From positions 19,039 to 83,038 of the forward strand of contig CAWHEU010000007.1 in NCBI GenBank assembly GCA_963828465.1: a stretch of DNA of 64,000 nt. Direction: 5' to 3'. Shown here in pieces: positions 1-64,000 of the stretch; within the stretch, counting starts at the first letter, position 1; each line of letters begins with the position of its first letter. The translations under genes and the position numbers were made by a program. Below the pieces are notes generated by a model. It did not search any database. It worked only from the letters and a program-made list of their open reading frames with translations, and was not told the origin of the DNA. Source of the stretch: an uncultured Acidobacteriota bacterium (lineage in GTDB: Bacteria > Actinomycetota > Acidimicrobiia > Spongiisociales > ZC4RG35).

Positions 1-1
1 C

Positions 2-19215: not shown

Positions 19216-20122
19216 TCAGCGCAAGACCTTCTTCACCCGCCGAACCGTGTAGCGGGCGCTGTCGGCGGCCACCTGGCGCAGGGCGGCGGTCCGGGCGGAC
19301 AAAGGCACTTTCTCGAACTTGCGCTCGTAGCCCAGATCGGCCAGCAGGTTCCCGGCGAGAGCCTCGAATCGGGCCACCTGGTCGTCGGACAGCTCCCGTC
19401 GCCAGTCGCGCAGACCCTTGGTCGGGGGGAGGAAGATGTCCTTGTGCCGGTCGGGCACCGCCGTGGTCGACACGATGTCGCCGGCTCGCTCGTAGTAGGT
19501 GAGCATCCGCGGATCGAATGGCAGACTCGAGGAAGTCGCATAGCTTCCTAACCGAGCCCTCGGTGTCGTCGATCAACTCCTCGAATCGGGACTCGATGTA
19601 TCGGTCGGGGCCGAGCGATTCCCCGGCCGCCCGTCCGGCGTCGACCCGGCGCTTCCAGGAGACGGCGACCTGTTCGATCTTGGTCCCGTCGGTGTGCGCC
19701 AGGGCGACGTCCCGGCCGTCTCGCACCGCATGGACGAATTTGCCCTCAGGGAAGAGGTCCGCCAGCAGCGTCAGATGATGGATGTTGCTCTGGGTCTTGT
19801 CTCCGTAGCGGGTCTTGCCCTGCAGGCCGGCGTAGAGGCCATAGAGCCGGCGCACCGCCTCCGGATAGTCCCCGGCCGGTGGGTCATTCAGAGCCATCTC
19901 GATGTCCCCAGCGTCGAGTCCCCAGTTCTCGAACCGATCGTCTTTGCCGAGATCCTTCAGGAACCGCTCGGTGTCGTAACCCTTCTCCCGGTACCGATTC
20001 GCCAGCCTCGCCACGAACCGGGCCTCACCCGGGATGGCCAGGTCGGGATGAGAGTCGAAAATGGCTCGGTGCAACGTCGTGCCCGAACCATTGGCCCCGA
20101 AGAAGAAGGGGAACGGCTTCAC
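19216..20122 (-). CDS. Sulfotransferase (Sulfotransfer_3 type; frameshift near 19520)
   Basis: FFFGANGSGTTL..IFDSHP, YGDKT, VRDGRDVALA, RFEELI..LCDFL; C-terminus in ORF 19216-19506 (DWRRELSDDQVARFE..LGY). Confidence 0.85.
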
Positions 20123-21111
20123 GTGAGCCCTGCCCGGATCTCGGCCAGGGCACGCCCGGCCGATCTCCGACCCCCCTCACCTTTCCGCTCGAGACGCTGG
20201 ATGGTGCCCATCAGGCGCTGCATCTCCGAGAAACGCCATCCGGGCCCCGAGGCGGCATCAGTGTCTCCATAGCCTTCGGTTACTGCCGCAACCAGAGCCT
20301 CGGTCCAGGGACGGAACGACGTCGTGGTGTAGCGGAGGCGATGAACGAATCGGGAGAGGTCGAAGCCACGAAGCTGGGGTATCCAGCCGAAGTCGATCAG
20401 ACCGGTGCCGTCCTCCATCATTATCACGTTCCCGGGGCTGAGGTCTCCGTGTGAGACGGTTACTCCGTGGGTGTCGGCTGAGGCCATGTCGAACAGCTCG
20501 CCAAGATGCGTCTCGAGACTCCTCCGATCGGCCTCTGGCAGCAGCGGCCCGATGGACTCGACTTTCCGCTCCGTCTCCTTCCAGATGCGATCCAGCTCTG
20601 GGCCAGGCTCGGGTTCGGGGAAACTCTCCAGAACCCGGACCGCCTGTCCGACTGCTGCTGCAGCGGCCAATGCCCTCGCTCGACTCTTGCCGGTAAAGGC
20701 GAACTGCAACGGGTTGCCCATGGGCTCGCCTTCCAACCCGAGGGTCACCACCTCGAGCGTGTCTTCGTCGAAGGCCAGCGTCTCATTGATGGCGAGAGAG
20801 GATTCGCCGGCGAGCTCCATGAAACGTCGCGCCATCTCGTCGCCCTGACTGAGGGCTTGGCGTGCCCGGCCCAGGTGTCGGGAATCCTGCTCCGCCGGCG
20901 GGAAGTACGGGGTCTTGTACCAGGCCGTCGCCACCGTTCCTTCGGTGGATCGCAAGGTCAAGTGGAAGAGCGTCGAGCGTTTGCGGTCGGTGCGGTCGCC
21001 CACGGTCCAGGTCAGAGATTCCGGGTCGATCGAGTGTTTGTCCGCCAGGGCCACCAGGGCCCTCTGCAGCACATCGGCTCCAGGGATGTCGGGTCGATGG
21101 TCGAAGGGCAC
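20119..21111 (-). CDS. APH/choline-kinase-like phosphotransferase (kinase 1)
   Basis: AWYK lysine, Brenner motif HGDLSPGN, LIDFG, FDLSRF; GTG start 8 nt after the permease stop. Confidence 0.75.
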   Translation of the reverse strand: MPFDHRPDIPGADVLQRALVALADKHSIDPESLTWTVGDRTDRKRSTLFHLTLRSTEGTVATAWYKTPYFPPAEQDSRHLGRARQALSQGDEMARRFMELAGESSLAINETLAFDEDTLEVVTLGLEGEPMGNPLQFAFTGKSRARALAAAAAVGQAVRVLESFPEPEPGPELDRIWKETERKVESIGPLLPEADRRSLETHLGELFDMASADTHGVTVSHGDLSPGNVIMMEDGTGLIDFGWIPQLRGFDLSRFVHRLRYTTTSFRPWTEALVAAVTEGYGDTDAASGPGWRFSEMQRLMGTIQRLERKGEGGRRSAGRALAEIRAGLT

Positions 21112-21119
21112 GGGCCGGC

Positions 21120-21989
21120 CTAGTAGCCGCTCAGCATGCCCATCTTTCTCCCGTACTCGAGTGAGCGGGAGAACAGCCAGAGACCGCCGGCGAGCACCAC
21201 CACATTGAAGGCGAGGAGTGCGATGACTGCCATTTGGAACGGGACGACGAACGTGCCCGGGTCTTCCATGAGCACGGCGCGGCTGGCGTTGATGACATAC
21301 GTGTGTGGGATGGCCCAGGACAAGGTCTGCAGCCAGGAGGGCAGCTGGTCGACCGAGAACACGGCACCGGCGAGCAATGACGCCGCCATGCCGTACAGAG
21401 TGAGGAATGGCTTCGACCGCTTCGAAATGATGAGGATGGCGGCCGAGACGATCCCGATCGCCGTGCAAGCCAGTATCCCCAGCACGAGCAGGACAAGGAA
21501 CTCCCGCCACCCGGAGGCCAGGTACTCCGCCCCGAGCAGGGCACCCATGCCGAGAATGATCGCCCCTTCGAGCACTCCCATCATTGTGTGCCAGAGATTC
21601 ATGGCAAAGGGGAGGAACGTCCACGGGACCGGCTCAACCAACAGGGTCTCCAGCGAGCCCCGGTTCAGGGCTCGTTGCAGGTTGCCTCCGAACCCGCTCA
21701 ACGCGCCCTGGAGAATCGCGGACACCGCCAACCCGAGTACGGCGAAGGTGAAATAGTCGCCACCCACCTCGGCCGACTCACCGACGAGGTCGCCGATGAA
21801 GAACGAGACCAGCACCGGTAGGACGGTTCCAAGCTCGCTGAGAATGAGCGACATGGGGTAGCTGAATTCCTCGATGGCATCCATGCGGAGGAACGCAACC
21901 GCGATCGAAGGGGTGGGTCTGTTCGGTGAGCGCCGCTTCTTGCGACGCCCGTGCTCCGCCGCTTCGGGGGTCTTGGTCTCGACACTCAT
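21120..21989 (-). CDS. ABC-2 type transporter permease
   Basis: About six TM helices, RGSLETLLVEP, GAVFSVDQLPSWLQTLSWAIPHTY. Confidence 0.88.
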   Translation of the reverse strand: MSVETKTPEAAEHGRRKKRRSPNRPTPSIAVAFLRMDAIEEFSYPMSLILSELGTVLPVLVSFFIGDLVGESAEVGGDYFTFAVLGLAVSAILQGALSGFGGNLQRALNRGSLETLLVEPVPWTFLPFAMNLWHTMMGVLEGAIILGMGALLGAEYLASGWREFLVLLVLGILACTAIGIVSAAILIISKRSKPFLTLYGMAASLLAGAVFSVDQLPSWLQTLSWAIPHTYVINASRAVLMEDPGTFVVPFQMAVIALLAFNVVVLAGGLWLFSRSLEYGRKMGMLSGY

Positions 21990-22990
21990 TTCGCTTGCTT
22001 CTCCCGATACATGTCGGCGAGGAGGTCGCGGAGCGGTCGCTGCACCTCCTGGAGGTGCACCACATCGGGTGCCACCGTCTCGAGGACTGCGAGGACGTCG
22101 CCAGTGGTTGTCTCGGATGAGGTCAGGACCGTCGTCAGCTGGGATCCCTCGACGGTGATCGACTCACCGAGACCGGCGGCGTCGATGAGCTTCCGGGCTT
22201 GACGGGCACTCTCGTCGGACTTGAACTCGATCTCGAGCTGCTCCCTGTCAACGAGGGCACGTAGCTCGTCGAGGTCTCCGTCGTACCGGATCCGCCCCTT
22301 GTCGAGGAGGACGACATGAGAGTGGAGGGCTTCGATCTCCTCCAGACGGTGTGAGCTGATCATGCAGGCGAGCCGCTCTTCCTCGACGATGGAGATGATC
22401 AATCCGAGGAGCTCGTGGGCGGCAACCGGGTCGATGGCGCCGGTGGGCTCATCGAGGATCAGGACGCTAGGACTGTGCAGGAGGGCACGGGCGAGCTGGA
22501 GTCGGGCCCGCATCCCGGAGGAGAGGGCAAAGACGGAATGCTCGGCGGCATGGGAGAGCCCGACCTTGGCCAGGGAGTCGTATATCCGCCCTTTGAGATC
22601 TTCACCTTTGAGTCCCTGCAGACGGCCGTGGAAGCGGAGGTTCTCGACACATGTGAGGCGGCCCAACAGGCTGACGTCCTGGCCTGGCATCCAGCCGACC
22701 ATGCGTCGCACTGCGACCGACTCGTGTTGGGCGTCGTATCCGCCCACCGTGGCCGTACCGGTAGAGGGAGTGGTGAGACCGAGGAGGATGCGGAACGTCG
22801 TTGTCTTGCCGGCGCCGTTAGGGCCGACCACGGCGCAGATCTCACCGGGCCCAACCTCGAAGGTGATGCCGTCGAGCGCGACCACCGCGTTCTTGATATT
22901 GCTCTTCACCATGAGCTTCATCCAGGTGGGCGAGGGCTCGTAGACCTTGGTCAGGTCTTTGACCGAGATGCTCGGATCGCGTTCGCTCAT
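21986..22990 (-). CDS. ABC transporter ATP-binding protein (DrrA/NodI-like)
   Basis: Walker A GPNGAGKTT, signature LSSGM, Walker B ILDEPT, H-loop SSH. Confidence 0.93.
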   Translation of the reverse strand: MSERDPSISVKDLTKVYEPSPTWMKLMVKSNIKNAVVALDGITFEVGPGEICAVVGPNGAGKTTTFRILLGLTTPSTGTATVGGYDAQHESVAVRRMVGWMPGQDVSLLGRLTCVENLRFHGRLQGLKGEDLKGRIYDSLAKVGLSHAAEHSVFALSSGMRARLQLARALLHSPSVLILDEPTGAIDPVAAHELLGLIISIVEEERLACMISSHRLEEIEALHSHVVLLDKGRIRYDGDLDELRALVDREQLEIEFKSDESARQARKLIDAAGLGESITVEGSQLTTVLTSSETTTGDVLAVLETVAPDVVHLQEVQRPLRDLLADMYREKQAK

Positions 22991-23173
22991 TTCCCTGTGA
23001 AACCCCTCAACGCCCAGGACGCCGCATCGAATGAAGTCGGCGCCGAATCAAGTAAACCACGGTTTGCGTGTGCGCCCCCCTAGACGAAGTGAGAGTGTAA
23101 CCGCCCTCCGTGGTCAAACAATATGCAGAACCCACTATCGTCCGGTCAGGAAGACGGGATCGGAGGGCATGCC

Positions 23174-24571
23174 GTGGGGGCGTGGAAATGGGTCTTGGTC
23201 GTCGGGGGGTTGACCGTGGCCCTGGCCGGCGGGTGGTTTCTCGGGAGCAGACTGGCGGGCGGAGGGGACACAGATCCCAACTCCCCTGAAGCGGCGACGC
23301 CCACCACACAGGGGCAGACATCGACAACACAGCCTGAGACGGGTCAGTCGACTCCTGTCACCGGGGCTGTCGACCCTTCATGCGATGTCCCACCCGGTCA
23401 GCCATACGTTGGTGGCCCGAGCGCCCAGTTGGTTGACCTCGGCGAAGTGAATGGGATGCAGGTCGAGGGTGTGGTGTACCCGCGGCCCGACTACCAGGGC
23501 GATCCGTGGACCATGTGGGGACAGGGCATCGCCCTGGACGATGGCCGTTTCGTCTCTGCGATAGGCGACCATCTCGGCCCTGACGGGAACTCGTTCGTCT
23601 ACGAGTACGACCCGGCGACCGGGTCGCTCGACACACTCGGCGATCTCCTCTCCTACGTCGAGCACACTCCGGGGGCGTGGGGATACGGCAAGGTCCACGG
23701 CCAGATGGCCGCCGGTCCCTGTGGTGAGGTCTATTTCGCCTCCTACTGGGGCACCAACCGTGACCTCCAGTACGGGTCGTCCTACACCGGGGACTATCTC
23801 TTCCGACTCGATCCCGACCAGCGCACGATCGCAGCCCTGGGAGTCCCAATCCAGGAGCACGGTATTCCCTCGCTGGCGGGGTCGTCGGACCTGGGACTGG
23901 TATACGGCGAGGCGATCGACCCGATAGCGGAGGCTCAGAACGTCGACGCCGGCCCGTTCTTCGTCTACGACGTCGTGAGTGAGCAGATGGTCTTCGAAGG
24001 CCCGGCGTCGCCGCATTCCGGATTCCGAAACGTGATGGTCGATGGCGGGGGGCGGGCGTACTACTCGATCGGCGCTGGCGAGCTGTCGGTTTATGACCCG
24101 GCGACCAACGAGGTGACGACCCACCCCCACCAGATGCCCGGTGACTGGCTCAGGGCCTCGACCACACCGGCCGAGGACGGAAGGGTGTTCGCGGTCACCC
24201 GGGATCCCGACGCGTTTTTCGTCCTCAATCCAGACGGGTCGATCGAGGGCCTCGGCAATCCGGCCGAGTACACCGCAACTATGGCCATCCACCCTTCCGG
24301 CGATCGGTTCTTCTTCATGCCCGATGCCCACGGCGACGCCTGGGCATTCGGTGGCGCCCTCACCAGTGTCGACACCGCGACCGGTGAGCAGACGGTGATG
24401 GCCGAGCTCAATCCCCTCACCGAGGAGGGTCTCGGGTTGCGTCTCGGCGGGACATTCAGCATGGCGGTGTCACCTGCCGGCGACACGATCTACATGGGTG
24501 CCAACGCCGGACCGCTCGGCGCGGACGACGGCTTCGGGGAAGTCGTCCTCCTCGTGATCCATCTCCCGTGA
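23174..24571 (+). CDS. Membrane-anchored acidic beta-propeller-like protein of unknown function
   Basis: N-terminal TM, T/P/Q-rich linker, repeated YDP turns (YEYDPATG, VYDPATN, VDTATG), GYGKVHG motif; GTG start after GGAGG. Confidence 0.7.
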   Translation: MGAWKWVLVVGGLTVALAGGWFLGSRLAGGGDTDPNSPEAATPTTQGQTSTTQPETGQSTPVTGAVDPSCDVPPGQPYVGGPSAQLVDLGEVNGMQVEGVVYPRPDYQGDPWTMWGQGIALDDGRFVSAIGDHLGPDGNSFVYEYDPATGSLDTLGDLLSYVEHTPGAWGYGKVHGQMAAGPCGEVYFASYWGTNRDLQYGSSYTGDYLFRLDPDQRTIAALGVPIQEHGIPSLAGSSDLGLVYGEAIDPIAEAQNVDAGPFFVYDVVSEQMVFEGPASPHSGFRNVMVDGGGRAYYSIGAGELSVYDPATNEVTTHPHQMPGDWLRASTTPAEDGRVFAVTRDPDAFFVLNPDGSIEGLGNPAEYTATMAIHPSGDRFFFMPDAHGDAWAFGGALTSVDTATGEQTVMAELNPLTEEGLGLRLGGTFSMAVSPAGDTIYMGANAGPLGADDGFGEVVLLVIHLP

Positions 24572-24589: not shown

Positions 24590-26230
24590 GTGGCGGCCCT
24601 GGTCGTCCTGACCGCGTGCACGTCCGGGGGCGGGGCGGGAACCACCGCCACGAGTGGGGCGGAGGCAGAGCCGGGAGGTACTTCCTCAGGCACCGCCGGC
24701 ACCGTCGCTGAAAGTGGAAGCCTCACCTGTTGGACGGCAGCGCCCGGGGGCGGGGAGACAGCGATCGGCTTTTCCGATCAGACGGAGGCCCTGGGCATGG
24801 TGACACCTCTGGTCGGCATGTACGGGCATGCCGGGGTGTGGGGCGACTTCAACGGCGACACACGGCCCGACCTCTTCATGGGCACGTTCGCCGATCGGGA
24901 CACCGAGATCTATCAGGCGCGGGGCGCCGACGGACCCGCCCCTGACCAGCTGCTCCTGTCGTCCGACGCCAGCTTTGCCGCCGACGAGAGCCTCCCCGAC
25001 ATGTTCGCCAGGACCAGCGGTGGGGCGACCGCCGATCTGGACTCGGACGGTGATTTCGACCTGGTCGTCTCACGAAACTGGGACGACGACCAGCCTTCGG
25101 CGCCAGGTACACAGATACTGCGGAACGACGGGGGCTCTCTGGTCCCGGCCGGAACCGGGCTCCCCACCCAATTTGCCGGCCGGTCGGTTGCTGTCCTCGA
25201 CTACGACCTCGATGGCCTGCTCGACCTGTTCATCACCGCCGATGAGGGCGGGAGTGTCCTGCTTCGAAACGAAGGGGACCTCGCTTTCACGGACGTCACT
25301 GTGGCGGCGGGTCTGCCCCAGGGCATCGTCGGACTCGGGGTGGCGGTGGCCGATCTCACAGGGGACCGTCGGCAGGACATCTTCGTGGCAGGGTCGAATC
25401 AGCTATTCGTCGCCGAGGGCGAGTCGTTCCAGCAGGTCGACAGCTCCGTTTTCGCCTGGCCACCGATCAGTGACGAGGATCTGGTCACGGGAGCTTCGAT
25501 CGCAGACGTCAATCGCGATGGTCTGCTGGACATCGCCGTCGGTCACCATTTCAACAGCACAATCGACGATGGGGCCATGGTCCCGGTGCGTCTATTCCTC
25601 AACAGGGGAGAGGCGCAGTTCGAGGAAGTGACCGAGGCGGCTGGACTGGTCGGGCTCCCGACCAAAGGCCCCCATGTCGAGCTCAACGACATGGACAACG
25701 ACGGCTGGCCCGACCTGGTCGCCACGGCCTCGGCCGCAGACGGCACCCGGCCCGCTGTGTTCCGGCACACAGGGCTCAACGGCGACATCCCCATGTTCAG
25801 CGCTCCGGAGGGCTTGGGGAGCCCTCAGTACTGGGTTGCCGGGCCTACGGCCGACATCGATCGGGACGGACGACTCGATGTCTTTCTGGTGGAGTTCGAC
25901 CCGGCACTGCCCTCACTGATGTTGCGCAACGAGACCGCGTCGGGCCACTGGCTGGAAGTTTCCATGGGCAACGAATTGGGATCCGGCCTGGGGTGGCGGA
26001 TAGAGGTCTACGAGGTGGGCGCAGTGGGGGATACGTCCGAGTTGCTCGGTGCCCGTGAGATCACAACCACTCAGGGCTACTCCTCGGGAGTGGCACCCGT
26101 TGCGCATTTCGGGCTCGGCGACCACGAGCAAGTCGACGTCCAGCTCAACCCCCCGGGCGATGGGGAGATTGTGATCCTCGAGGGCGTGTCCGCCGATCAA
26201 CATGTGAGATATCCGGAGGGCTGCGGCTGA
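24590..26230 (+). CDS. FG-GAP/VCBS repeat lipoprotein with ASPIC/UnbV-like C-terminus (CRTAC1-like)
   Basis: Lipobox LTAC; seven Ca-binding loops (DFNGDTRPDL, DLDSDGDFDL, DYDLDGLLDL, DLTGDRRQDI, DVNRDGLLDI, DMDNDGWPDL, DIDRDGRLDV); GYSS..AHFGLG; true start may be the out-of-frame GTG at 24568. Confidence 0.85.
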   Translation: MAALVVLTACTSGGGAGTTATSGAEAEPGGTSSGTAGTVAESGSLTCWTAAPGGGETAIGFSDQTEALGMVTPLVGMYGHAGVWGDFNGDTRPDLFMGTFADRDTEIYQARGADGPAPDQLLLSSDASFAADESLPDMFARTSGGATADLDSDGDFDLVVSRNWDDDQPSAPGTQILRNDGGSLVPAGTGLPTQFAGRSVAVLDYDLDGLLDLFITADEGGSVLLRNEGDLAFTDVTVAAGLPQGIVGLGVAVADLTGDRRQDIFVAGSNQLFVAEGESFQQVDSSVFAWPPISDEDLVTGASIADVNRDGLLDIAVGHHFNSTIDDGAMVPVRLFLNRGEAQFEEVTEAAGLVGLPTKGPHVELNDMDNDGWPDLVATASAADGTRPAVFRHTGLNGDIPMFSAPEGLGSPQYWVAGPTADIDRDGRLDVFLVEFDPALPSLMLRNETASGHWLEVSMGNELGSGLGWRIEVYEVGAVGDTSELLGAREITTTQGYSSGVAPVAHFGLGDHEQVDVQLNPPGDGEIVILEGVSADQHVRYPEGCG

Positions 26231-26254: not shown

Positions 26255-27370
26255 GTGTCCGATCTCCTCGCTCTCTTCGAGACGGGCTTCTTCACGACCG
26301 GGCTCCGCCTTGGTGTGCTGGCGCTGGCACTGGGCTGGGCCCTTCGATTTGTGACCGGCCGCTATCGACCCCCAATGCCAATTGCCGGGGTGCTCATCGC
26401 GATAGCCACGATTGGTGGCCTGTACCTCGTGGCTGAGCCACTCGGGCCTGCGGTCCCGGCCCTCGCAGCGATAGCCCTCGGAGTCCTGATCGTCCGCTTG
26501 ACCCGGGCACCGGCTTGGGTGCAGATACTGGCTGCTGTGCCTGGTTCGGTGTGGCTGGGCTTCGGTGCGACTGTCACCGACCTGACCTGGGTTCGGGTCC
26601 TGATGGCGGTGCTGATCCCGGTCGGTGGATTTCTCATCAATGACTTCGAGACACGCAACCAACGCCTCGGGCTCGGCGTCATCTACTTCACCCTTGCTGT
26701 GCTCGGCACCTTCGCCGCCGTTCCCGACACCGAACAAGCTCTGGTCCTCATGGCAGCTGCTCTGCCCATCACCCTTCTCGCCTGGCCCAAGGTGGCCGTC
26801 TCGCTGGGCATGGAGGGCTCCTTCGTGGCCGTGGGTGCATTCCTCTGGGTGGCGGCGGCTGGTGGGGGCGGCCGTCCACCGTCGATCGCAGGATCGGCGG
26901 CGTGCCTGGGACTGCTCCTCCTCGAGCCGCTCATCTTCCGACTTCGACCCGGCACGGCCAATCTGGTGAACAGGGTTAGGCAGAACTGGCTGGGCGCAGT
27001 GGTGGCCTCGATCCCACAGTTCGTCTTGGTCGTGATCTGCTCGCGGATCGCAGCCCGGTTCGACAACATGCTTCCCGCCTTGATCGTAATCGTCGCCGGC
27101 TACCTGATCGCCCTGGGTGTCGGGATCTACGTCGGTACTCGAGTCTCCGAGCCGGCAGAAAGCGCACCAAGCTCCGTTCTGAACTGCTTGATGGCGGGCA
27201 CCATTAACATGCCCATCCATGTGGAGGAGGAGCCCGCGGGTTCTGAGCGCGCTCGTCGTCGGTGTCATCGTGGCATCAGTGATGGTGGGCGAGTCCTGGC
27301 TGCCAGCGCAGGCCCAAACGACCGATGTGACCGCGACCGTCGAAACCGATCCGGTTCCCAACGGCGGTGA
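26255..27370 (+). CDS. Polytopic membrane protein of unknown function (true end probably near 27180)
   Basis: About ten hydrophobic segments, AVPDTEQ loop; the tail beyond ~27180 overlaps the phytase gene and looks out of frame. Confidence 0.65.
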   Translation: MSDLLALFETGFFTTGLRLGVLALALGWALRFVTGRYRPPMPIAGVLIAIATIGGLYLVAEPLGPAVPALAAIALGVLIVRLTRAPAWVQILAAVPGSVWLGFGATVTDLTWVRVLMAVLIPVGGFLINDFETRNQRLGLGVIYFTLAVLGTFAAVPDTEQALVLMAAALPITLLAWPKVAVSLGMEGSFVAVGAFLWVAAAGGGGRPPSIAGSAACLGLLLLEPLIFRLRPGTANLVNRVRQNWLGAVVASIPQFVLVVICSRIAARFDNMLPALIVIVAGYLIALGVGIYVGTRVSEPAESAPSSVLNCLMAGTINMPIHVEEEPAGSERARRRCHRGISDGGRVLAASAGPNDRCDRDRRNRSGSQRR

Positions 27371-39109: not shown

Positions 39110-39154
39110 CGTCCGTCCTCCGTCGACCACCTTGGTGTCGGTTGTCGCCCAGTC

Positions 39155-52835: not shown

Positions 52836-52865
52836 AATCAAACCTAATATTCGGTAACTGCGCTG

Positions 52866-56111: not shown

Positions 56112-56146
56112 ACGCTGGAAGGCACATCAACGGTGGGGGCTCTCGT

Positions 56147-57139
56147 TTGAAGCGCGAAAACACGTCTCGCCTCCTTATTGGAGGAATCCTGGTGGCAGTC
56201 GTCATCGGTGTTCTGGTATGGCTGAACGTATCCGACGACGATCCCGAGGACGGCGCTGCGATTGCTCCGACATCACCAACATCTGCACCGCCTGCTCCGA
56301 CAGGTCCGGGTGTCAATGTCATTGACGTGGCGGCTGGGAGCAGCGTCTATCTCAGTCCTGGTTCGGAACCTGAGTGGTCCCCTGACGGCAGTCAGCTCGC
56401 CTTCACGTCTGAGGAGGATGGGCAGACGGGTGTCTATGTGGTCGATGCCGCCGGTGCGGCGGGCGGCACGTTCCTCACCCCTGGGTCAGGGCCGGTCTGG
56501 TCTCCTGAAGGCTCGGAGCTCGCCTTCACGTCTGAGGAGGACGGCGAGACGGGCGTCTACGTGATCGACGCTACCGGTGGGAGCGGAACTTTCCTCACAC
56601 CGGGATCAGGGCCCTCGTGGTCTCCCGATGGGTCCCAGCTCGCCTTCACCGACGAAGAAGGCGGCGAGACCGGGATCTATGCGATCGATGCTGATGGTGG
56701 GAGTGGCACCTTTCTCACTCTCGGCTCAGGGCCCGCCTGGTCCCCCGACGGGACCCAACTTGCCTTTACGGCCGAAGACAATGGCGAAACCGGTATCTAT
56801 GTGGTCGATGCTGCGGGTGGAACAGGCGCTTTCCTCACTCCTGGGTCTGGGCCTGTCTGGTCTCCCGACGGGTCCCAACTCGCCTTCACAGTTGATGCTG
56901 ACGGTGAGACTGGTGTCTATGTTGCCGACACTGCCGGTGGAACCGGCACGTTTCTCACCCCGGGATCAGGGCCTGTCTGGTCTCCTGACGGCGCCCAACT
57001 CGCCTTCACCGCGGAAGAGAATGGTGAGGCAGGTGTCTACCTGATCGACGCAGCCGGCGGGAGCGGCACGTTCCTGATTCTCGGATCTGGTCCGGTCTGG
57101 TCTCCTGACGGGTCGCAGATCGCCTTCATCCAGGAGTAA
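56147..57139 (+). CDS. Membrane-anchored PD40/TolB-like beta-propeller with seven near-identical blades
   Basis: TM, P/T linker, 7x WSP(D/E)G(S/T/A)x(L/I)AF at 40-41 aa period. Confidence 0.9.
   Translation: MKRENTSRLLIGGILVAVVIGVLVWLNVSDDDPEDGAAIAPTSPTSAPPAPTGPGVNVIDVAAGSSVYLSPGSEPEWSPDGSQLAFTSEEDGQTGVYVVDAAGAAGGTFLTPGSGPVWSPEGSELAFTSEEDGETGVYVIDATGGSGTFLTPGSGPSWSPDGSQLAFTDEEGGETGIYAIDADGGSGTFLTLGSGPAWSPDGTQLAFTAEDNGETGIYVVDAAGGTGAFLTPGSGPVWSPDGSQLAFTVDADGETGVYVADTAGGTGTFLTPGSGPVWSPDGAQLAFTAEENGEAGVYLIDAAGGSGTFLILGSGPVWSPDGSQIAFIQE
56345..57136 (+). repeat. Coding tandem repeat, 120-bp unit, ~6.6 copies
   Basis: CGCCTTCA (one variant TGCCTTTA) recurs at 56398, 56521, 56641, 56761, 56881, 57001, 57121. 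Confidence 0.9.
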
Positions 57140-57171
57140 CGACTGGGAACCTTTCCGGGGCAGCCGCTTTC

Positions 57172-57978
57172 TTGAGCCGAACCGAGACCCTGAAGCGAAT
57201 GATTGAGATCAACGGGTTGACCTGGACGTCCCTCGTTGTCGTCTATGGAGCCTGCCGCACGATTAACAAGGATCTCCGACTCCCGTCCCTCGACCGACTC
57301 ATCAGGGCTGTTGAGAATCGTCGTGGTGTCCCAGGAATGGGCGCCAGCGAACTCCAGGCGCTCATCTGGGACAACTGGGATTGGAGCGCCGATGGAGGAG
57401 AGAAGTGGACCGAGTCCACGGCCTGGAAGGACTCAGTTATCGATGAGGTGCTTCGCCCTCGAATCCCTGAGGGTAGCGACGTCCTCGAAATCGGGCCGGG
57501 TGCGGGTCGGTGGACTGAAGCTCTTGCCGCACTTTCGGACTCACTGACACTGGTCGATATCTCACCCCGATGCATAGACATCTGTCGGGACAAATTCGGA
57601 CACCTAAGTTCGGTGTCATTTCATGTCACCAGCGGCTCGGACCTCTCGTTCATAGACGACGCGTCTATCGATGCGGTGTGGTCCTTTGACGTGTTCGTCC
57701 ATCTGGCCGCAGCTGATGTCAAGGGGTACATAGCGGAGTTGGCAAGGGTGCTCAGGTCAGGAGGGCAGGCTGTCATTCACCACGCGGCCGGCGGAGGCAT
57801 ACACGGCGGCTGGCGGAGCGCGATGACCAACGAGGAGTTCACAGTGATAGCGGAGCACGCCGGCTTCGTCGTCGTCGAGCAATTCGATTCATGGGGGAAA
57901 TCGGGAGCGTTCGCTGTTCCGGAAGAGCATGACTTGATCAGCGTCATTCGGAAGCCTCCCTCTGGCGACGGTGCTTGA
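57172..57978 (+). CDS. Class I SAM-dependent methyltransferase
   Basis: VLEIGPGAGRWT, VDIS, SFDVFVH, RVLRSGG. Confidence 0.9.
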   Translation: MSRTETLKRMIEINGLTWTSLVVVYGACRTINKDLRLPSLDRLIRAVENRRGVPGMGASELQALIWDNWDWSADGGEKWTESTAWKDSVIDEVLRPRIPEGSDVLEIGPGAGRWTEALAALSDSLTLVDISPRCIDICRDKFGHLSSVSFHVTSGSDLSFIDDASIDAVWSFDVFVHLAAADVKGYIAELARVLRSGGQAVIHHAAGGGIHGGWRSAMTNEEFTVIAEHAGFVVVEQFDSWGKSGAFAVPEEHDLISVIRKPPSGDGA

Positions 57979-60513
57979 GCGCTTTGGACACAACACGGAC
58001 AGCAATTGGCGGCGAGAACGCCCATCGAGCCGTCAACTCGCGTCTGACGGCGATCTGGCGCAATTACGGAAGTTCGTTGACACTTCTGGGCCTCGGAGCC
58101 CTCGCAGTGAGTCAACCGATACTCAGCGACCTTCGGGCCGGCGCCGGCTACTTCGTCGCTCGACGTGTACAGCCGGTGGACATCGTGGTGCTGGTGCTTG
58201 TGGTGACGCTGGCCCCTGGTGTCGCCGCGAACGTGGTCGTGTGGTTGGCAGGACTCTTCTCGAGGGGGCTCCGTTTCCTTGTCGAGGCGGGCGCAGTGGG
58301 CATCTTTCTCACCCTGATGATGCGGACTTTCGCGCTGCGAATCGTGAGTGCTCCCGAGGCCGCGCTCCTCATCCCTGTCGCGATTGGCACTGCTATGGCC
58401 GTGATCTATTACCGATCGGAGTGGGTTCGAGACGGCCTAACGTGGGTTGGTCTAGCCCCCGTGATCATTGCGGGCTTCTTTCTGTTCACGCCACCGGTGG
58501 TACATCTGGTCGTCCCTCGGGGTTTTGTGCCCGTGGAGGCTGGCGTGGAGTCAAAGGCCCCGGTCGTATTCATCGTGTTCGATGAACTTCCGCTTGTCTC
58601 GCTCCTCGATCGGGCCGGGGAGTTGGACGTGGGTCGGTATCCGAACTTTGCCGCCCTCGCGGAGACGTCGACTTGGTACAAGTACACCGCCACCGCCCAT
58701 GATCTCACGCTCTGGGCAGTTCCGGCGCTGCTGACCGGTGACTTACCAGACCAGTCTCGGGTCCCGACCACAGCCAATTACCCGGGAAATCTCTTCACGC
58801 TCCTGGATCGCTCGCATGAGCTGAATGTCATGGAATCCCATACGTATTTGTGCCCTTCTGAGATGTGTGGCGAAACTCAGCCGCCAACAAGATTCTGGGA
58901 GCGGTTCGGCTCACTCATCGACGATGCGGCGCGCCTGTACGCGATGATCATCGCCCCCGACCCTTCCGCATCGGCATCTGTGTCCGACACGTTCACTGAG
59001 GCATTGGCGGTGGCTGAAGCGACGGCCGATCGAGAGTCGATCCCCGACAGGCCGACAGGATTCGAAGCGTTCTTGGACGGCATGACCTCTGGGAACTCCC
59101 GGCTGTACTACGCACACCTAGCGCTGCCGCATATCCCATATCAGTACTACCCCTCCGGACGGCAATACCTCGGGTGGGGCGGACTCGAAGGCCAAGAGGG
59201 CGAGTTGTGGTTCGACCAGGCCCTAGCTGAGCAGGGATATCAAAGGCATCTGTTTCAGGTCGAGTACGTCGATCGTCTGCTCGGGCAGCTCCTCGATCGG
59301 CTTGAAGAGGTGGGGATCCTCGACGAGGCCATCCTGGTGGTGACCGCGGATCATGGAGCCAGCTTTCGCGGAGACACTCCGCGTCGTGGCCTAGTCGACA
59401 CCAATGCATTCGAAATCGGGATGGTGCCTTTGTTCATCAAGGCGCCGCATCAATCTTCCGGGATCGTCGAGTCGACTCCGGCGCGGACCATTGATGTCCT
59501 GCCAACAGTGGCTGCGCATTTGGGGATAGAGCTTCCCTGGCCGCATCAGGGGCAATCGCTGACAGGAAATCCGAGAACCGCCCCGCCGCTGCAGGTGAAG
59601 GCGTACTGGGAAAGTGACTTGGTCGAATTGGAGAATGTCGCTGAGGGTGTCCTCGATGCCACCGAGTACGCATATTCGATTTTCGGAGATGGCAAAGGAC
59701 GAATCGACCCGGATTCGCTCGGTGACTACGACTCCCTAATCGGTCGCGCACCCGAGGAGGTATCGACCGGCTCGTCGGCTCTCGGTGTGCACGTTGAAGA
59801 CCTATGGCGTCTTGACCACGTCTCAGAATCGATCGGCTTTCTTCCGGGCTTCGTTAGGGGCGAAGTTGTCGGGGACGTGGAACCTGATTTGCACCTAGCA
59901 GTTGCGCTGAATGGTCGTATAAGAACGGTTGTACCAGTGATCGAGGGGGGTGACATCACGAGTTTCAGTGCCTTTCTCCCGGAGCATGCCTTCGTACCGG
60001 GTTTCAACGATCTCACCCTCGTGGCAGTAACCGGACCAATCGACTCTCCTGAGGTTGAGAACATCGAACTGGACGAGCAGCAAGAGTTTCAACTGGAACC
60101 GGGGGAATCAGGTGAGCCCGGGCACCTTGTCGACAGGGACGGTCAGACCTGGGAGTTGACCGAAGAGCAAGTCCTGAACGGATATGTCGAGGCAACTGAG
60201 TGGTATCCGAACGAAGCCGTGAGCTCAAGTACAGACTTGGTTGTGGTCGGCTGGGCGGTCGATACGCTGGAGATTGAGCCCGCAGAGCGCGTCGTGTTCT
60301 TCATTGACGGGGTCTTTGGAGGCTCAACTGTCCCCGATGTCGAGCGGCCGGACGTTCGACAACCGCCAGGCCCTCCGTAGTGGATTCCGGGCACAGCTTT
60401 CCCATTTCTCCCCAACCGAGAATTGCGCACTGCGAGCATTCGCTCTATCCGGTGACAGCGCGATCGAGCTCGAGATCAGTGAGCGAGCGCGATCGAGCTT
60501 CCTCGGTTGCTGA
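57975..60513 (+). CDS. Membrane-bound alkaline-phosphatase-superfamily transferase (LtaS/EptA-like 'sulfatase'; frameshift near 60360)
   Basis: About five N-terminal TMs; VFDEL, HDLTLWAVP (Thr at the nucleophile position, no CxPxR), LPHIPY, TADHG, VPLFIK, DVLPT; C-terminal VGWAVD..ERPDV domain. Confidence 0.8.
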
Positions 60514-60522: not shown

Positions 60523-61377
60523 CTACTCCGGCGTCCTCACGAAGATCAGCTCGGAGCCGTCAGGAGACCACGACGGCTCTTCGCCGCTCGTGACTTCGGT
60601 CGGCGTCGAATCTGGGGCGACCGTGGCCACGATCGGGAGCTCGGCTGTGTCCTCGCCGCTGAAGGCCAGAGTGGATCCGTCAGGTGACCACACCGGGTCG
60701 TCGCCGCCGGTCACGAAGGTGATCTCAGAACTTGCCAGGTCGAAGAGCTGGATCTCGGAGTCGCCTTCGCTGTTCTCACGGACGAAGGCGATGGTCGAAC
60801 CGTCCGGCGACCATGAAGGCTCGTTCCCGGGGGAGAGCAAGGTCACAGCCTCGCTGGCTACTTCGAAGGTATAGACACCAGGATTCCCAGCCTGGTCCTG
60901 ACCGCTGAACGCGATCATTGCCCCATCTGGTGAGAAGACGGGCTCGTCGCCGTCTGTGAGGAACGTGGGCTCACCGCCCTCGGCGGGGATGGTGTACACG
61001 CCCGACACACCCTGGTCGTCTTCGAGGCTGAAGGCGATGGTGGCTCCGTCCGCCGACCAGCTCGGATTCCCGCCCGACGTGATGAAAGTCGGCTCGCCAC
61101 CAGCCAGATCCATCCGGTAGATGCCTTCCACGCCTTCCTCGTCGTCGGCGGTGAGAAGCACCGAATTTCCATCCGGTGACCATTGAGGGTCATTGCCCTC
61201 GACCACCAGTGATGCCTCGCCTTCACCCGAGGATGCGATCCTGAATATCGAGGGCTGTGGTGCCGGCCCCCGGTTCAGAAAGAAGTAGATCCCGGCGGCG
61301 AGCCCCAGCACCACCAAAAGCAGCACGAATCGCTGCCAAAGTGAACGTTTCCCCCACCAGCCTGTTCTAGATGTCAT
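60523..61377 (-). CDS. Membrane-anchored PD40/TolB-like beta-propeller, six blades
   Basis: TM followed by 6x P-x-(W/F)S(P/A)DG. Confidence 0.9.
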   Translation of the reverse strand: MTSRTGWWGKRSLWQRFVLLLVVLGLAAGIYFFLNRGPAPQPSIFRIASSGEGEASLVVEGNDPQWSPDGNSVLLTADDEEGVEGIYRMDLAGGEPTFITSGGNPSWSADGATIAFSLEDDQGVSGVYTIPAEGGEPTFLTDGDEPVFSPDGAMIAFSGQDQAGNPGVYTFEVASEAVTLLSPGNEPSWSPDGSTIAFVRENSEGDSEIQLFDLASSEITFVTGGDDPVWSPDGSTLAFSGEDTAELPIVATVAPDSTPTEVTSGEEPSWSPDGSELIFVRTPE

Positions 61378-61469
61378 GCGGGCGACATATTAGAGCCTCG
61401 TCGAGTTATGAAAACCCAGGAGTTGGCAGGCAACTCTTGGCTGATTGGACCCCTGGTACCGTCATCCCG

Positions 61470-62422
61470 GTGCAATCGGTCGTCCCGATCTTCGTCAGCA
61501 GCGGACGATCGGGTCTGACGCTTTTGCGAATGATCTTCGACACCCATCCGGAGCTAACCGTCGCCCATGAGCCGCGGTTCCTCGCCACCATGGCCCCCAA
61601 CCGCGGGCGATACGAGAGGGATGGCGGGCTCGATATTCATCGGTTCCTCGGCGATCTCTATGCGGTGTCTAACTTTCGTCGTCTCGGTTTGCCCCGCAAG
61701 GAGGTGAGATCCGCTCTAGAAGACCAGCGTCCGGCTGGATTCGTGGACGCGGTCAGAATCGTCTTCGGGATGTACGCACAAAGCCGGGGCAAGGCCATGT
61801 ACGCGGACAAGACGCCGCTCTACATCTCGTTCATGGAGCCGATCGCGGTCTGCTCCCCGAGGCCCGGTTTGTACATCTGGTCAGGGACGGACGCGACGTG
61901 GTCGTCGCCTACCTGGAAAGGGACAAGGGTCCGGCCACGGTGGCCGAGGGCGCCTTCCATTGGCGGCTGCGAGTAAACAGGGGCCATCGATCCGGGCAGG
62001 TTCTGGGACCGGATCGTTATCGGGAGTTCCACTACGAGGATCTGATCGAGGACCCCGAGGCGACGGTGCGGGCCATCTGCGATTACCTGGGCCTCGACTT
62101 CCATAATGAGATGCTCGACTACCAGCGGACTGCGGAGAAGTTTCTCGCCGAGGCCAAGAATCCGGCAGACCATCAGCACCTGACGTTGGCCCCCACGAAG
62201 GGCCTGGTCGACTGGAGACGCTCCATGTCGACCGACGACGTTGCCCTATTCGAGGCCATCGCCGGCGACACGCTGGAGGCCGTGGGATACCAGAGGGTAT
62301 CGATGAGGAAGATCTCGTCTCTGGTGGTGGGGTGGGAGTGGGCCCGGTGGCAGACGAAACGGGTGCTCTGGCGCGTCGGATGGGTCGTCTTTCGTCGACA
62401 GCCCGGTGTCGAGAATCTGTAG
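61470..62422 (+). CDS. Sulfotransferase (Sulfotransfer_3 type; frameshift near 61850)
   Basis: FVSSGRSGLTLL..IFDTHP, YADKTP, VRDGRDV, YEDLI, ICDYLGL, PTKGLVDWRR; start uncertain. Confidence 0.85.
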
Positions 62423-62500
62423 CGGGTGGCCGCGGCTAAATTTCCTCGTTCTGACGTGGTCTGAAGTGGGCCCCAGCTGCAGAGACGTCGTGGAGGCATC

Positions 62501-64000
62501 ATCACTTCTGACAACACCGGAACCCCTAATCGTCAGACCACAGTCATCTACGCCCTGATCGGCGTTGTTGTCCTGCTCGTCGGCGGGATCGTCGGATTCC
62601 TGGTGGCTGGCGATGACGCAGCACCCACCACGACGACATTGGCGCCGACGACCACCTTGCCGCCGACCACGACCACGACCCTGCCTTCGACCACGACGGT
62701 GCCAGCCACGACCACCACCTCCTCGGGATCGGCCGAGGGAGGCATCGTTCTCACCGCAGTCGAGGACACCTGGGTCGACAGCGACGAGCTGGTGACACCA
62801 ATGGGGACGAGCCCGATCCTCGAGACAGAGCAGGACGGAACCGACTTCAAACGGGCGCTCATCGGGTTCGAGGTGGCCGACCTCCCGGAGGGGGCGACGA
62901 TCGCATCGGCCGCTCTCCACCTCGCCGTGCTCGACGGGTCCGAACAGGGTGGTTCGATAAGCCTGGTCGACGGGCCTTGGACCGAAGCGGAGACAACCTG
63001 GGCTTCGGCGCCGCCGATCGGTGCCCAGATTGCGCCCCTGGTGGCTCCGATCAACGGGACCGTGGTCGAGGTGGACGTGACAAGGGCGGTGACCGGCAAC
63101 GGGCGGGCCGATTTCTACGTCACTACAGAGTCCGAAGACGGTATCGATTTGGCTTCGAGGGAGAATCCGCAGGCTCCGCCCACCCTGGTCATCACCCTGG
63201 CTGGAAGTGCGGAAACGCCAACGGGCGAAAGAGCGATCTTGGTTGGCGCCGGTGACATTGCCGGCTGCGACAGCGACGGAGACGAGGCCACGGCGGCGTT
63301 GCTCGACGAGGTTGTGGCCCGAGGGTCCGAGACCGTGGTGTTCACCGCCGGTGACAACGCTTATGAGTCTGGGTCGGCTGCCAATTTCGCCGACTGCTAT
63401 GACCCGAGTTGGGGGCGTCACCGGGCGATCACCCGGCCGGCCGCCGGGTCACGGGAGTACCGAACTTCGAACGCCTCCGCATATTTCGAATACTTCGGTG
63501 CCGTCGCCGGGGACCCAGCAGAAGGCTGGTACAGCTACAACCTCGGAGGCTGGCACATCGTGGTGATCAACTCCAACTGCACCGAGGTCGGTTGTGAGGC
63601 TGGGTCGGCACAGGAGCAATGGCTGCGGGAGGACCTCGAGGCCCACTCCACCGCCTGCACTTTGGGCTACTGGCACCAGCCGCTGTTCAGCTCCCGGTCC
63701 GGGGAACCAATCCGAGATGCTTCCCATCTTCCAGGCCTTCTACGACGCCGATGCCGACGTCGTGGTCAACGGGAATGACCATTTCTATGAGCGTTTCCTT
63801 CCCCAGGATCCTGTCGGGGAGGAAGAGGACGACGGGATTACCCAGTTCACTGCTGGCACCGGTGGGCGGTCCCTGGACGATTTCGAAGGGCCGTCGCCGA
63901 ACAGCGGGGTGCGCTTCAACGAAGCCTTTGGCGTGCTCGCCTTCACGTTGTACCCGGGTGGGCTGGACTGGGAATTCCTAACGCCTGCGGGAAGCACTCA
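62501..64000 (+). CDS. Membrane-anchored Thr-rich DNRLRE/CBM96-like + metallophosphoesterase-like protein with degenerate metal ligands (frameshift near 63715; runs off the window)
   Basis: Paralogue of 28862-30433; AVEDTWV..ALIGF..SREN..PTLVI; AGDI and AGDNAY present, but GSREY, WHQP, NGNDHFY. Confidence 0.82.
62624..62725 (+). repeat. Low-complexity coding repeat (Thr/Pro linker)
   Basis: (ACS)n runs encoding PTTTTLAPTTTLPPTTTTTLPSTTTVPATTTTSS. Confidence 0.8.

Follow-up and report, generated by a model that had tools for sequence, protein, structure and literature searches.

We analyzed a window of 64,000 nucleotides (nt) of an acidimicrobiian genome (G000:C7:19039-83038; the end of the window coincides with the end of the contig) and describe here the genes from position 19216 onward. 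Among them are four aminoglycoside phosphotransferase-like (APH-like) kinases (K1 to K4), two sulfotransferases (ST1 and ST2), and three exported phosphatase-fold proteins, namely, a beta-propeller phytase (PHY) and two metallophosphoesterases (PE1 and PE2). We put the odds at about even (a probability of roughly 0.5) that, in one genus of uncultured Acidimicrobiia from soil, the region is a single conserved supercluster by which a heteropolysaccharide of the cell surface is made, exported, and tailored. Loci for the biosynthesis and tailoring of glycans are of a known type, of which this one is a rich variant, and it is distinguished by a private kinase family and by exported phosphatases that share one operon with members of that family, which is unusual. 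As judged from sequence, it holds a new kinase family, one subfamily of which is atypical, and it joins exported phosphatases to cytoplasmic glycan enzymes in an operon, a link that is unusual but restricted to this lineage. Phosphorylation of the glycan in the cytoplasm (the "write" half) would be plausible on these grounds; dephosphorylation outside the cell (the "erase" half), and with it a reversible cycle, is offered as a hypothesis.

Gene content and order of the locus

The G000 genome comprises 3.07 Mb in 29 contigs, with 64% G+C, 92% completeness, and 4.8% contamination, and its named close relatives are metagenome-assembled Acidimicrobiia. Genes were called with a codon-usage model trained on the long open reading frames (ORFs) of G000 and were annotated with Pfam and NCBIfam and by direct reading of the sequences. 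Comparisons drew on 24 genomes of the genus (the unpublished G018 is counted in all genus tallies) and, for profile searches, on 401 genomes of the class; labels in G, C, and L are our handles for genomes, contigs, and loci.

By Pfam, NCBIfam, and direct reading, the gene classes listed in a preliminary description of this DNA are present in the places it gave for them. It had counted two methyltransferases, of which one (57172-57978) is intact and the other (about 52200-52835) carries two in-frame stops, near 52414-52430. Families and topology also support its picture of a glycan locus with kinases and sulfotransferases in the cytoplasm and phosphoesterases outside it: the four APH-fold kinases are soluble and have no signal peptide, and neither they nor ST1 have a transmembrane (TM) segment. 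The genes on which our argument turns are the following.

19216-20122, minus strand: ST1, Sulfotransfer_3 family (94.7 bits), frame broken
20119-21111, minus strand: K1, APH-family kinase (Pfam APH, 31.0 bits) with HGDLSPGN and DFG
27219-28865, plus strand: PHY, beta-propeller phytase with a signal peptide and a C-terminal domain of ~180 amino acids (aa)
28862-30433, plus strand: PE1, TM anchor, Pro/Thr linker, CBM96 (DNRLRE) domain, and metallophosphoesterase domain of the purple acid phosphatase (PAP) type
30424-31539, plus strand: GT4a, glycosyltransferase (Pfam, NCBIfam)
31546-32508, plus strand: K2, kinase of a small APH-clan family, without a Pfam match, catalytic loop YGDFAPYN
32703-34058, minus strand: K3, APH (24.7 bits) with HADLAVGN, DWE, and an N-terminal extension
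38162-39130, minus strand: K4, K2 paralogue without a Pfam match, SHNFSRND in place of the catalytic loop
45752-47620, plus strand: Wzc-like chain-length/co-polymerase protein with a kinase-dead P-loop domain
61371-62422, plus strand: ST2, Sulfotransfer_3 family (41.7 bits for the C-terminal part, 19.1 for the N-terminal part), frame broken
62603-64000, plus strand: PE2, CBM96 and a rewired PAP-like domain (GSRE, GNDH), frame broken, gene truncated at the contig end

The operon of phytase, phosphoesterase, GT4, and kinase that had been described is real: an ATGA belongs to both PHY and PE1, GT4a begins within PE1 with an overlap of 10 nt, and 6 nt lie between GT4a and K2. These are the last four genes of a seven-gene plus-strand run that starts at 23123 and is divergent from a minus-strand run of an ABC ATPase, its permease, K1, and ST1, in which the ATPase and permease overlap by 4 nt, the permease and K1 are 8 nt apart, and K1 and ST1 overlap by 4 nt. 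A scan of 19 to 38.5 kb for promoters and terminators gave counts no higher than those in shuffled sequences, and no Pho-box-like repeat was seen by eye in 22991-23122.

This order is shared among relatives. From 19216 to 48476 it runs from the ABC-2 genes through exp482, an FG-GAP protein, a membrane protein, PHY, PE1, GT4a, K2, K3, and GT4b and continues with a GT4-GNAT fusion, a WecA-like transferase, K4, a membrane protein, a GNAT protein, GT4c, an epimerase, a CapD-type dehydratase, the Wzc-like protein, and a CE4 deacetylase. It is collinear in G012, G017, G020, G006, and G014 and at L023, L024, and L028, as far as the contigs reach, and the ATPase-permease-K1-ST1 order is kept in G012, G017, G020, and G006. 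PE1, GT4a, and K2 are adjacent in 12 genomes, with the phytase beside them in 11, and because the core order recurs in these 12 genomes, the arrangement is not due to chance. K4 is absent from 2 of the 12 K2-bearing loci. G024 (L031), with a K2 of 38% identity, keeps PHY-PE1-GT4a-K2 and has no K4, and G078 (L032/L050), from another genus, has the PE1-GT4a-K2 core with a sulfotransferase after PE1, no phytase, and no K4. G008 (L030) keeps PHY-PE1-GT4a-K2 on a 4.4-kb contig that stops directly after K2, so that the presence of K4 cannot be judged there. Across the 24 genus genomes, the phytase was matched in 10 and K3 in 12; the PE1 query was matched in 20 (any match, PE2-type and weak ones included) and the K2 query in 14 (K4-type and 28 to 32% relatives included). 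Neither K2 nor K3 was matched in any of the 16 genomes of other families in the same draw, and a search for related loci with the A3 alignment returned 11 close loci.

The block from 48510 to 60380 is variable (30 to 50% identity or no match in G012:C8 and G006), which, by analogy, would resemble O-antigen-like loci. Beyond this block, a segment of PD40, ST2, and PE2, followed by an LtaS-like gene, is conserved again. G012 has two slightly different copies of the PD40-ST2-PE2 segment (L046, which is G012:C37, versus G012:C8; dS, 0.155); since the contamination of G012 is 8%, the two copies may belong to two co-binned strains.

In four genomes of other genera (G335, G041, G167, and G312), the order is membrane protein, Wzc-like protein, CE4, GT4, kinase, three small ORFs, sulfotransferase, GT4, and ABC-2, and no Metallophos or phytase match was found in these loci. 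The co-occurrence and synteny that the preliminary description had put forward as a check hold for PE1-GT4a-K2 within the lineage and break down for the phosphoesterases in these four loci. The three small ORFs between kinase and sulfotransferase are conserved; two have no family, and one is biotin/lipoyl-like. L053 has a further biotin/lipoyl-like ORF after the sulfotransferase, the counterpart of which in L058 has no Pfam match (positions of these ORFs: 11043-13176 and 14197-14637 of L053 and 11025-13227 of L058).

The remaining features of the region are given below.

19183-19208: palindromic, GC-rich, terminator-like hairpin at the end of the minus-strand operon (11-bp stem, 7 GC pairs)
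21120-21989, minus strand: ABC-2 type permease (Pfam/NCBIfam)
21986-22990, minus strand: ABC ATPase of DrrA/ABCA type (Pfam/NCBIfam, PDB)
23123-24571, plus strand: exp482, membrane-anchored beta-propeller, first gene of the plus-strand operon
24590-26230, plus strand: FG-GAP/ASPIC protein with a lipoprotein-like N terminus
26255-27370, plus strand: polytopic membrane protein, which ends ~65 codons earlier in relatives (indel near 27170)
34055-35305, minus strand: GT4b (Pfam)
35391-37193, plus strand: GT4 fused to a C-terminal GNAT (Pfam)
37181-38143, plus strand: WecA/MraY-family polyprenyl-phosphate HexNAc-1-P transferase (Pfam, NCBIfam)
39155-40552, minus strand: polytopic membrane protein; its language-model look-alikes include GT39/PMT_2 GT-C transferases, a lead only
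40549-41505, minus strand: GNAT acetyltransferase (Pfam)
41492-42595, minus strand: GT4c (Pfam)
42597-43475, minus strand: NAD-dependent sugar epimerase/reductase (Pfam, NCBIfam)
43764-45761, plus strand: CapD/PglF-type membrane UDP-HexNAc 4,6-dehydratase (Pfam, NCBIfam)
47679-48476, plus strand: CE4 polysaccharide deacetylase (Pfam, NCBIfam)
48510-60380: variable block, which starts with a small ORF and holds the next eight entries
48854-49732: GT2
49885-51153: GT4d
about 51032-52130: GT4e, two frame changes
about 52200-52835: methyltransferase, two stops
52866-56111, minus strand: membrane/GT-C-like genes (GT-C is a language-model lead only)
56147-57139: PD40 propeller
57172-57978: methyltransferase, intact
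57984-60380: LtaS/EptA-like protein, 5 to 6 TM segments
60523-61377, minus strand: membrane-anchored PD40 (TolB-like) propeller (Pfam, NCBIfam)

For exp482, nothing was found in Pfam or NCBIfam; the Atlas gave unnamed clusters and a weak SGL/WD40 lead, and an AlphaFold2 model (predicted local distance difference test score [pLDDT], 73.4) matched generic seven-bladed propellers only. Upstream of the locus, the window contains a decayed surface-protein gene at 17200-19200 (stops, frame changes, and a low coding score) with SLH-like repeats (RGQMAAF...) and leucine-rich-repeat-like repeats (LDLSxNKF), intact homologues of which in relatives carry Pfam SLH domains. Positions 1 to 14100 hold a second sugar-nucleotide/glycan block with an NTP_transferase, a DRL-type oxidoreductase, RmlC, Bac_transf, a heparinase II/III-like protein, a GT4 frameshifted at 9377-9410, and two UDP-glucose dehydrogenase genes, set apart from the main locus by MarR, YceI, Rrf2, and TauE genes.

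Kinases, exported phosphatases, and altered residues

The preliminary description had counted four APH-like kinases, and all four bear this out: K1 and K3 exceed the Pfam APH (PF01636) gathering cutoff of 23.2 bits, and K2 and K4 are recognized through a family profile and the K2 structure. K2 and K4 gave no Pfam family at an E value of ≤1 and no NCBIfam kinase model; the N-terminal 170 aa of K3 likewise gave no Pfam family at an E value of ≤1, and K1 had only weak PDB matches by sequence. K2 and K4 are paralogues with about 25% identity. K2 retains YGDFAPYN, IID, and the beta3 Lys (K60); in K4, Asn stands in for the catalytic Asp and, five residues further along, Asp stands in for the Asn, with the Lys and the metal-binding Asp retained. 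The APH catalytic-loop pattern (HxDxxxxN) is found in K1, K2, and K3 and not in K4.

A profile built from K2, K4, and their orthologues and searched against 1.84 billion cluster representatives found 268 proteins at an E value of ≤0.001 and 159 at ≤1e-10. Pfam APH matched 22 of 102 family members; the other 80 had no Pfam match. Against the PDB, the 102-sequence profile matched corramycin phosphotransferase (E value, 6.6e-8), maltokinase (4e-6), and the N-lobes of Hanks kinases, and a smaller, 9-sequence profile matched only Rio2 (1.4). The family has motifs of its own, [YF]GD[FY]xPxN, LLDPP, and HRD[VI]A. Among 129 aligned family sequences, 87 keep the canonical D, N, D, and K, and 15 are of the K4 type ([RQN]FSxND). 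An AlphaFold2 model of K2 (pLDDT, 95.2; predicted template modeling score, 0.92) has a bilobal kinase fold, with mycobacterial maltokinase, actinobacterial glucosamine kinase, APH(3')-Ia, corramycin phosphotransferase, and choline kinases as its best Foldseek neighbors (probability 1.00 for maltokinase, APH(3')-Ia, corramycin phosphotransferase, and choline kinase). Maltokinase and glucosamine kinase (PDB 4u94, 5jy7, and 6hwj) resemble the model in Foldseek E values (2.4e-8 to 1.5e-7) and in the APH-type catalytic loop but differ from it in showing 12 to 20% identity and template modeling scores of 0.5 to 0.6. The members are glycan-locus or SLH-locus kinases, and the subfamily without the canonical catalytic Asp is a concrete target for enzymology. 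Canonical K2-like kinases (26 to 31% identity, FGDFGPGN) also lie within arrays of SLH-domain surface-protein genes in 8 genomes (L036 [G009:C131], L037, L038, L039, L051, L052, L054, and L055), which suggests a second role of the family, related to the S-layer or a wall polymer.

Three exported phosphatase-fold proteins had been described, and phytase, PE1, and PE2 were all confirmed, the latter two with a CBM96 domain. The phytase starts at 27219 with a signal peptide that begins MWRRSPRVLSALVVGVIVASVMVG; it matches Pfam PF02333 with 358.6 bits over profile positions 3 to 370 of 375 and the Bacillus phytase 1poo with an E value of 3.9e-85 over residues 17 to 329, at about 55% identity. DAADDPAIW and NNVDIR, which we take to be beta-propeller phytase signatures, are visible in that alignment, and, judged by sequence, the protein is a typical free-phytate enzyme. 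No Pfam family was found in its C-terminal 200 aa at an E value of ≤1. Its C-terminal domain (residues about 355 to 525) resembles repeated domains of very large proteins in G030, G031, and G035, which belong to other families of the order and have open frames of up to 1,686 aa.

PE1 carries all five PAP motifs (GDISD, GDNVY, GNHDY, WHHP, and GHDH); the general forms GDxx(D/G), GDxxY, GNH(D/E), VxxH, and GHxH presumably carry the seven metal ligands. Its PDB matches at an E value of ≤0.01 were to purple acid phosphatases only, three sequences (1xzw, 1.1e-5), and PE1 is probably a PAP-type monoesterase. PE2 has the architecture of PE1, but in 9 genomes it has GSREY for GNHDY and G(N/D)DH for GHDH; it retains motifs I, II, and IV and the last His and lacks the full set of five motifs. 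A third, fragmented PE-like Metallophos remnant (L040, G000:C2:205284-206398), 61% identical to the catalytic half of PE1, lies among unrelated genes and adjoins the nuo operon.

The Wzc-like protein is the third member with altered residues. Aligned to BceF, it has G--SGIFKED for GPTPGIGKS and DAT for DAD and has lost the Walker B Asp; all six orthologues, from at least three genera, lack Walker A, A', and B, and no Tyr cluster was found in the six C-terminal tails. Its score against NCBIfam TIGR01007 was 39.9 bits (cutoff, 108), and its PDB relatives are VpsO and BceF.

The degenerate members of the preliminary description are real, in that their defining residues are identical in independent sequences, 4 for K4 (SHNFSRND in all four aligned), 9 for PE2, and 6 for the Wzc-like protein. 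We calculated dN/dS by the pairwise Nei-Gojobori method, using only first high-scoring segment pairs with ≥90% query coverage and dropping split matches. The values were 0.15 to 0.26 for K4 (6 pairs), 0.15 to 0.48 for K2 (8 pairs), 0.19 to 0.28 for K3 (7 pairs), 0.087 to 0.26 for PE1 (8 pairs), 0.04 to 0.18 for PE2 (15 pairs), and 0.087 for the Wzc-like protein (1 pair). Since independent assemblies show the same substitutions in K4, PE2, and the Wzc-like protein, and purifying selection acts on all three (0.04 to 0.26), these residues are not sequencing errors, a danger that the description had itself named and that is now ruled out.

It is very improbable that the locus is decaying or misassembled, with the degenerate and interrupted genes being pseudogenes or errors and no functional system in this strain. 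That explanation draws on a series of frame breaks. ST1 has a +1 insertion near 19526, common to G012 and absent in G017, G020, and G006; ST2 has lost 1 nt from a CC run near 61846, and PE2 has lost 1 nt at each of two sites, in G and C runs, near 63700-63711, all in G000 only. GT4e has two frame changes in G000, the methyltransferase at about 52200-52835 has its two stops, the GT4 upstream is broken at 9377-9410, and the tail of the membrane protein at 26255-27370 is altered by the indel near 27170. The indels in ST2 and PE2, which fall within short homopolymers, suit an artefact: both genes are intact in G012 and G006, and contigs from an independent run across 61845 and 63700-63711 carry the missing letters, these contigs being ~91% identical and hence from relatives rather than the G000 strain. 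The best read runs hold at most 0.10 of the sampled words, and the sole near-identical contig stops at 63693. The indels found in G000 only, and likewise the breaks in GT4e and the methyltransferase, are probably consensus errors, and the shared ST1 insertion may be real. The core from 20 to 48 kb, in contrast, is intact in frame apart from the last codons of one membrane protein, and the breaks in G012 differ within the same genes, so that random errors of a long-read consensus fit better than decay. Put plainly, the degenerate residues are genuine and conserved, the frameshifts are probably artefacts, and, as shown below, the pairing of active with dead enzymes fails.

Proposed addition and removal of phosphate

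The preliminary description had proposed paired active and degenerate enzymes, and this pairing did not survive comparison. Strong matches to a K4-type profile (E value, ≤1e-40) were found in 14 of the 401 class genomes, and in G335, G041, G167, and G312 the kinase belongs to the K4 type ([RQ]FSPND), and no other family member lies within 10 kb on either side; the K4 type would thus appear to be an old subfamily that works alone. In three genomes (G001, G015, and G019), a PE2-type protein lies between PD40 genes and an LtaS-like gene in a locus without PE1, K2, or ST2, and no active Wzc partner was found beside the dead Wzc-like protein in any locus seen. With each of the three occurring without its active counterpart, pairing is unsupported, and K4, PE2, and the Wzc-like protein seem better described as conserved, rewired proteins.

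The same description had proposed that the cell writes phosphate onto the polymer and erases it again. The "write" part remains plausible; the "erase" genes are not constant, and since the four other-genera loci have no phosphoesterase, phosphoesterases appear to have been added, in this lineage, to a glycan locus that already had its kinases and sulfotransferases. In its strict form, the proposal is that the kinases add phosphomonoesters in the cytoplasm and that CBM96-held PE1 and the phytase remove them after export, the polymer being a phosphate store, a charge switch, or the bearer of a transient export tag. We regard this as unlikely. PHY, PE1, GT4a, and K2 are translationally coupled, and PE1-GT4a-K2 are adjacent in 12 of 12 genomes that have a PE1 orthologue (≥52%) and its surroundings on one contig, a count that includes G018 and spans down to 38% K2 identity; among the 24 genus genomes, no PE1 orthologue (≥52%) occurs without a K2 orthologue. 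However, all 12 genomes fall within one family and so are not independent, the four other-genera loci have the kinase and no phosphoesterase, and the G078 locus lacks the phytase. The topology fits, with writers inside and erasers outside, as does the domain that PE1 and PE2 share, since CBM96 was founded on an alginate-specific, polyanion-binding module (PMC9971899).

A second, nonorthologous pair of a kinase and an exported Metallophos protein, 1 nt apart, occurs in G005, G009, and G011 (an APH-like kinase followed by a Big_9-Metallophos protein; 10026-12221 of L033 [G005:C14], with L034 and L035) and favors the proposal, but its kinase was matched at an E value of ≤1e-10 only in G005, apart from a weak, 26% match to K3 of G000. 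The L033 Big_9-Metallophos protein has the variant motifs GDHEY and GNDH and no motif IV His, and in all three loci the pair is set among a MOP flippase, GT4, SLH protein, CE4, Bac_transf, and epimerase genes, a Wzx-type glycan locus. Further against the strict form, PAP-like exported Metallophos proteins occur in 58 of the 401 class genomes with no kinase nearby, mostly within proteins of 1,000 to 1,800 aa, and the phytase is about 55% identical to the Bacillus free-phytate phytases.

The last two points are what would be expected if K1 to K4 were sugar kinases (anomeric ones, for example) that feed donor synthesis, the polymer carried no phosphate, and PE1, PE2, and the phytase were ordinary ectoenzymes for soil organic phosphate that use the wall polymer only as an anchor. 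The best Foldseek neighbors of K2, maltokinase and glucosamine kinase, also agree with such a role; maltokinase supplies sugar phosphate for GlgE. Enzymes of this kind are secreted by soil bacteria (PMC9306846). We nevertheless consider this account improbable: no nucleotidyltransferase for sugar-1-phosphates was found at 19 to 64 kb (the sole NTP_transferase is at 468-1280), four different kinases are many for precursor supply, and the coupling of PE1 and GT4a-K2 in the operon is conserved across 38 to 96% identity.

A bolder version, to which we assign a similarly low chance, would have a dedicated, operon-encoded cycle in which kinases write inside and PE1 and the phytase trim outside, with the K4 and PE2 types rewired rather than dead. 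The wall polymer would then be a phosphate store or a charge switch, and sulfate esters or a sulfonucleotide would be candidate substrates of K4 and PE2. K4-type kinases have Arg or Asn at the catalytic Asp and Asn-Asp for x-Asn, and PE2-type esterases have Ser-Arg for Asn-His and Asn or Asp for His. It is because the K4 type lies ~2.3 kb from a sulfotransferase gene in the four other-genera genomes, and PE2 adjoins ST2, that a sulfate-type substrate is a candidate.

If the exported phosphoesterases do act on the glycan of the cell itself, this would be the first biosynthesis operon to encode enzymes that phosphorylate a wall polymer in the cytoplasm together with enzymes that dephosphorylate it outside the cell, and it would bear on the phosphorus economy of soil Actinomycetota. 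A literature search for a purple acid phosphatase or beta-propeller phytase in a glycan operon gave nothing relevant, with most subscription journals outside its coverage.

Phosphate or sulfate as a replacement for pyruvate as the SLH-binding group was considered and rejected, since G000 has a CsaB-like pyruvyl transferase with SLH proteins on C22. That wall-polymer region (L041, G000:C22:268000-288000) also contains a third Sulfotransfer_3 gene, a methyltransferase, rhamnose genes, and a PMT-like GT-C, with an adenosine 5'-phosphosulfate (APS) kinase 30 kb away.

Proposed pathway and comparison with known systems

By sequence, the precursor and initiation set consists of the CapD-type dehydratase, a reductase or epimerase, and the WecA-like transferase, and the glycosyltransferases comprise six or more GT4 enzymes, GT2, and membrane proteins that are GT-C-like candidates. 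In the supercluster reading, the dehydratase and reductase would make a sugar of the 6-deoxy-HexNAc type, which the WecA-like enzyme would load on polyprenyl phosphate for the GT4 enzymes to extend, and the GNAT proteins and CE4 deacetylase would set the state of N-acetylation. Kinases and sulfotransferases would put anionic groups on sugars or on the lipid-linked glycan in the cytoplasm. ST1 and ST2 have the loops GSGTTL and RSGLTL, which we take to be 5'-phosphosulfate-binding loops, and an RDGRDV motif is present. The presence of an APS kinase in G000 (C22:247312-247767) means that 3'-phosphoadenosine 5'-phosphosulfate can be made; a Sat-type ATP sulfurylase was not found in G000, and CysDN was not searched for.

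No Wzx-type flippase was found by Pfam between 19 and 64 kb, and export may therefore use the ABC-2 pump; because K1 and ST1 are translationally coupled to the ABC-2 genes, they may act in the manner of the Escherichia coli O9a terminator WbdD. Outside the membrane, GT2, the candidate GT-C-like membrane proteins, and the LtaS-like enzyme would modify the polymer. The last of these, at 57984-60380, has a Thr at what we take to be the Cys/Ser (formylglycine) position of sulfatases; its Pfam Sulfatase match covers profile positions 161 to 301 only, it scores far under the NCBIfam cutoff, and it may attach a phosphodiester-linked group on the outer side of the membrane. PE1 and the secreted phytase would be surface-tethered phosphomonoesterases, late insertions into the GT4a-K2 operon in this lineage only, with PE1 and PE2 holding the polyanion through CBM96, and K4, PE2, and the Wzc-like protein would be old, conserved, rewired families, neither decayed copies nor obligate partners of an active paralogue.

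Several points weigh against this pathway. The ATPase and permease are nearer to DrrAB/ABCA-type exporters than to characterized Wzm/Wzt: the ATPase matches DrrA, NodI, and ABCA types in NCBIfam and the PDB, no Wzt or TarH chain is among the best 60 of its 69 PDB matches (E value, ≤1e-25), no carbohydrate-binding C-terminal domain was identified in it by NCBIfam and PDB searches, and for the permease no relative was found in the PDB by sequence. K1, at 330 aa, consists of one domain and lacks the methyltransferase and coiled coil that WbdD has, and because the nearest structural neighbors of K2 are small-molecule kinases, the sugar phosphates made by the kinases may never reach the polymer. 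From the other side, the tight operon and perfect linkage of PE1 to GT4a-K2 argue that PE1 is more than a passenger, and the second kinase and Big_9-Metallophos pair favors a functional link between kinase and phosphoesterase. Finally, G000 has interruptions in PE2, in the two sulfotransferases, and in one gene each for a GT4 and a methyltransferase; if these breaks are real, tailoring is partly lost.

Among known systems, WbdD of E. coli O9a has a protein-kinase-like fold and, by phosphorylating the glycan in the cytoplasm, governs both its chain length and its export (PMC3482155). The wzm-wzt-wbdD arrangement is like the one described here in having a kinase gene beside ABC-2 exporter genes, but WbdD is a bifunctional kinase-methyltransferase with a coiled coil and K1 a kinase domain only, and Wzt has a C-terminal domain that binds the glycan end, whereas the present ATPase is DrrA/ABCA-like. 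GacH decorates a glycan with glycerol phosphate outside the cytoplasm (bioRxiv 10.1101/337519), and GacH, LtaS, and EptA share with the protein at 57984-60380 the arrangement of N-terminal TM helices and a sulfatase-fold ectodomain. The xss cluster of Synechocystis, for the sulfated exopolysaccharide synechan, likewise has dedicated sulfotransferases within an exopolysaccharide cluster (PMC8205485), although it is cyanobacterial. In Bacillus subtilis, GlpQ and PhoD turn over wall teichoic acid under phosphate limitation (PMC7086022, PMC6232261), and the concept of a phosphate-rich wall polymer dismantled by exported phosphoesterases is the same; those enzymes cleave phosphodiester backbones and are encoded outside the biosynthesis operon, whereas here a PAP-type monoesterase and a phytase lie inside it.

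The nearest published parallel is the wps-1 exopolysaccharide cluster of Actinoplanes missouriensis, which has two sulfotransferases, an S-adenosylmethionine-dependent methyltransferase, the kinase-like WpsI, a glycoside hydrolase, and Wzx/Wzy/Wzz, and in which deletion of wpsI gives the phenotype of deletion of the whole cluster (PMC13390465). Like the present locus, it is an actinomycetotal polysaccharide cluster with two sulfotransferases, a methyltransferase, a kinase-like protein, and a Wzz-like protein; unlike it, it depends on Wzx/Wzy, encodes a glycoside hydrolase and a single kinase-like protein, and lacks an exported phosphatase. The statement in the preliminary description that no characterized locus has this combination thus needs narrowing: wps-1 already brings together two sulfotransferases, a methyltransferase, and a kinase-like protein.

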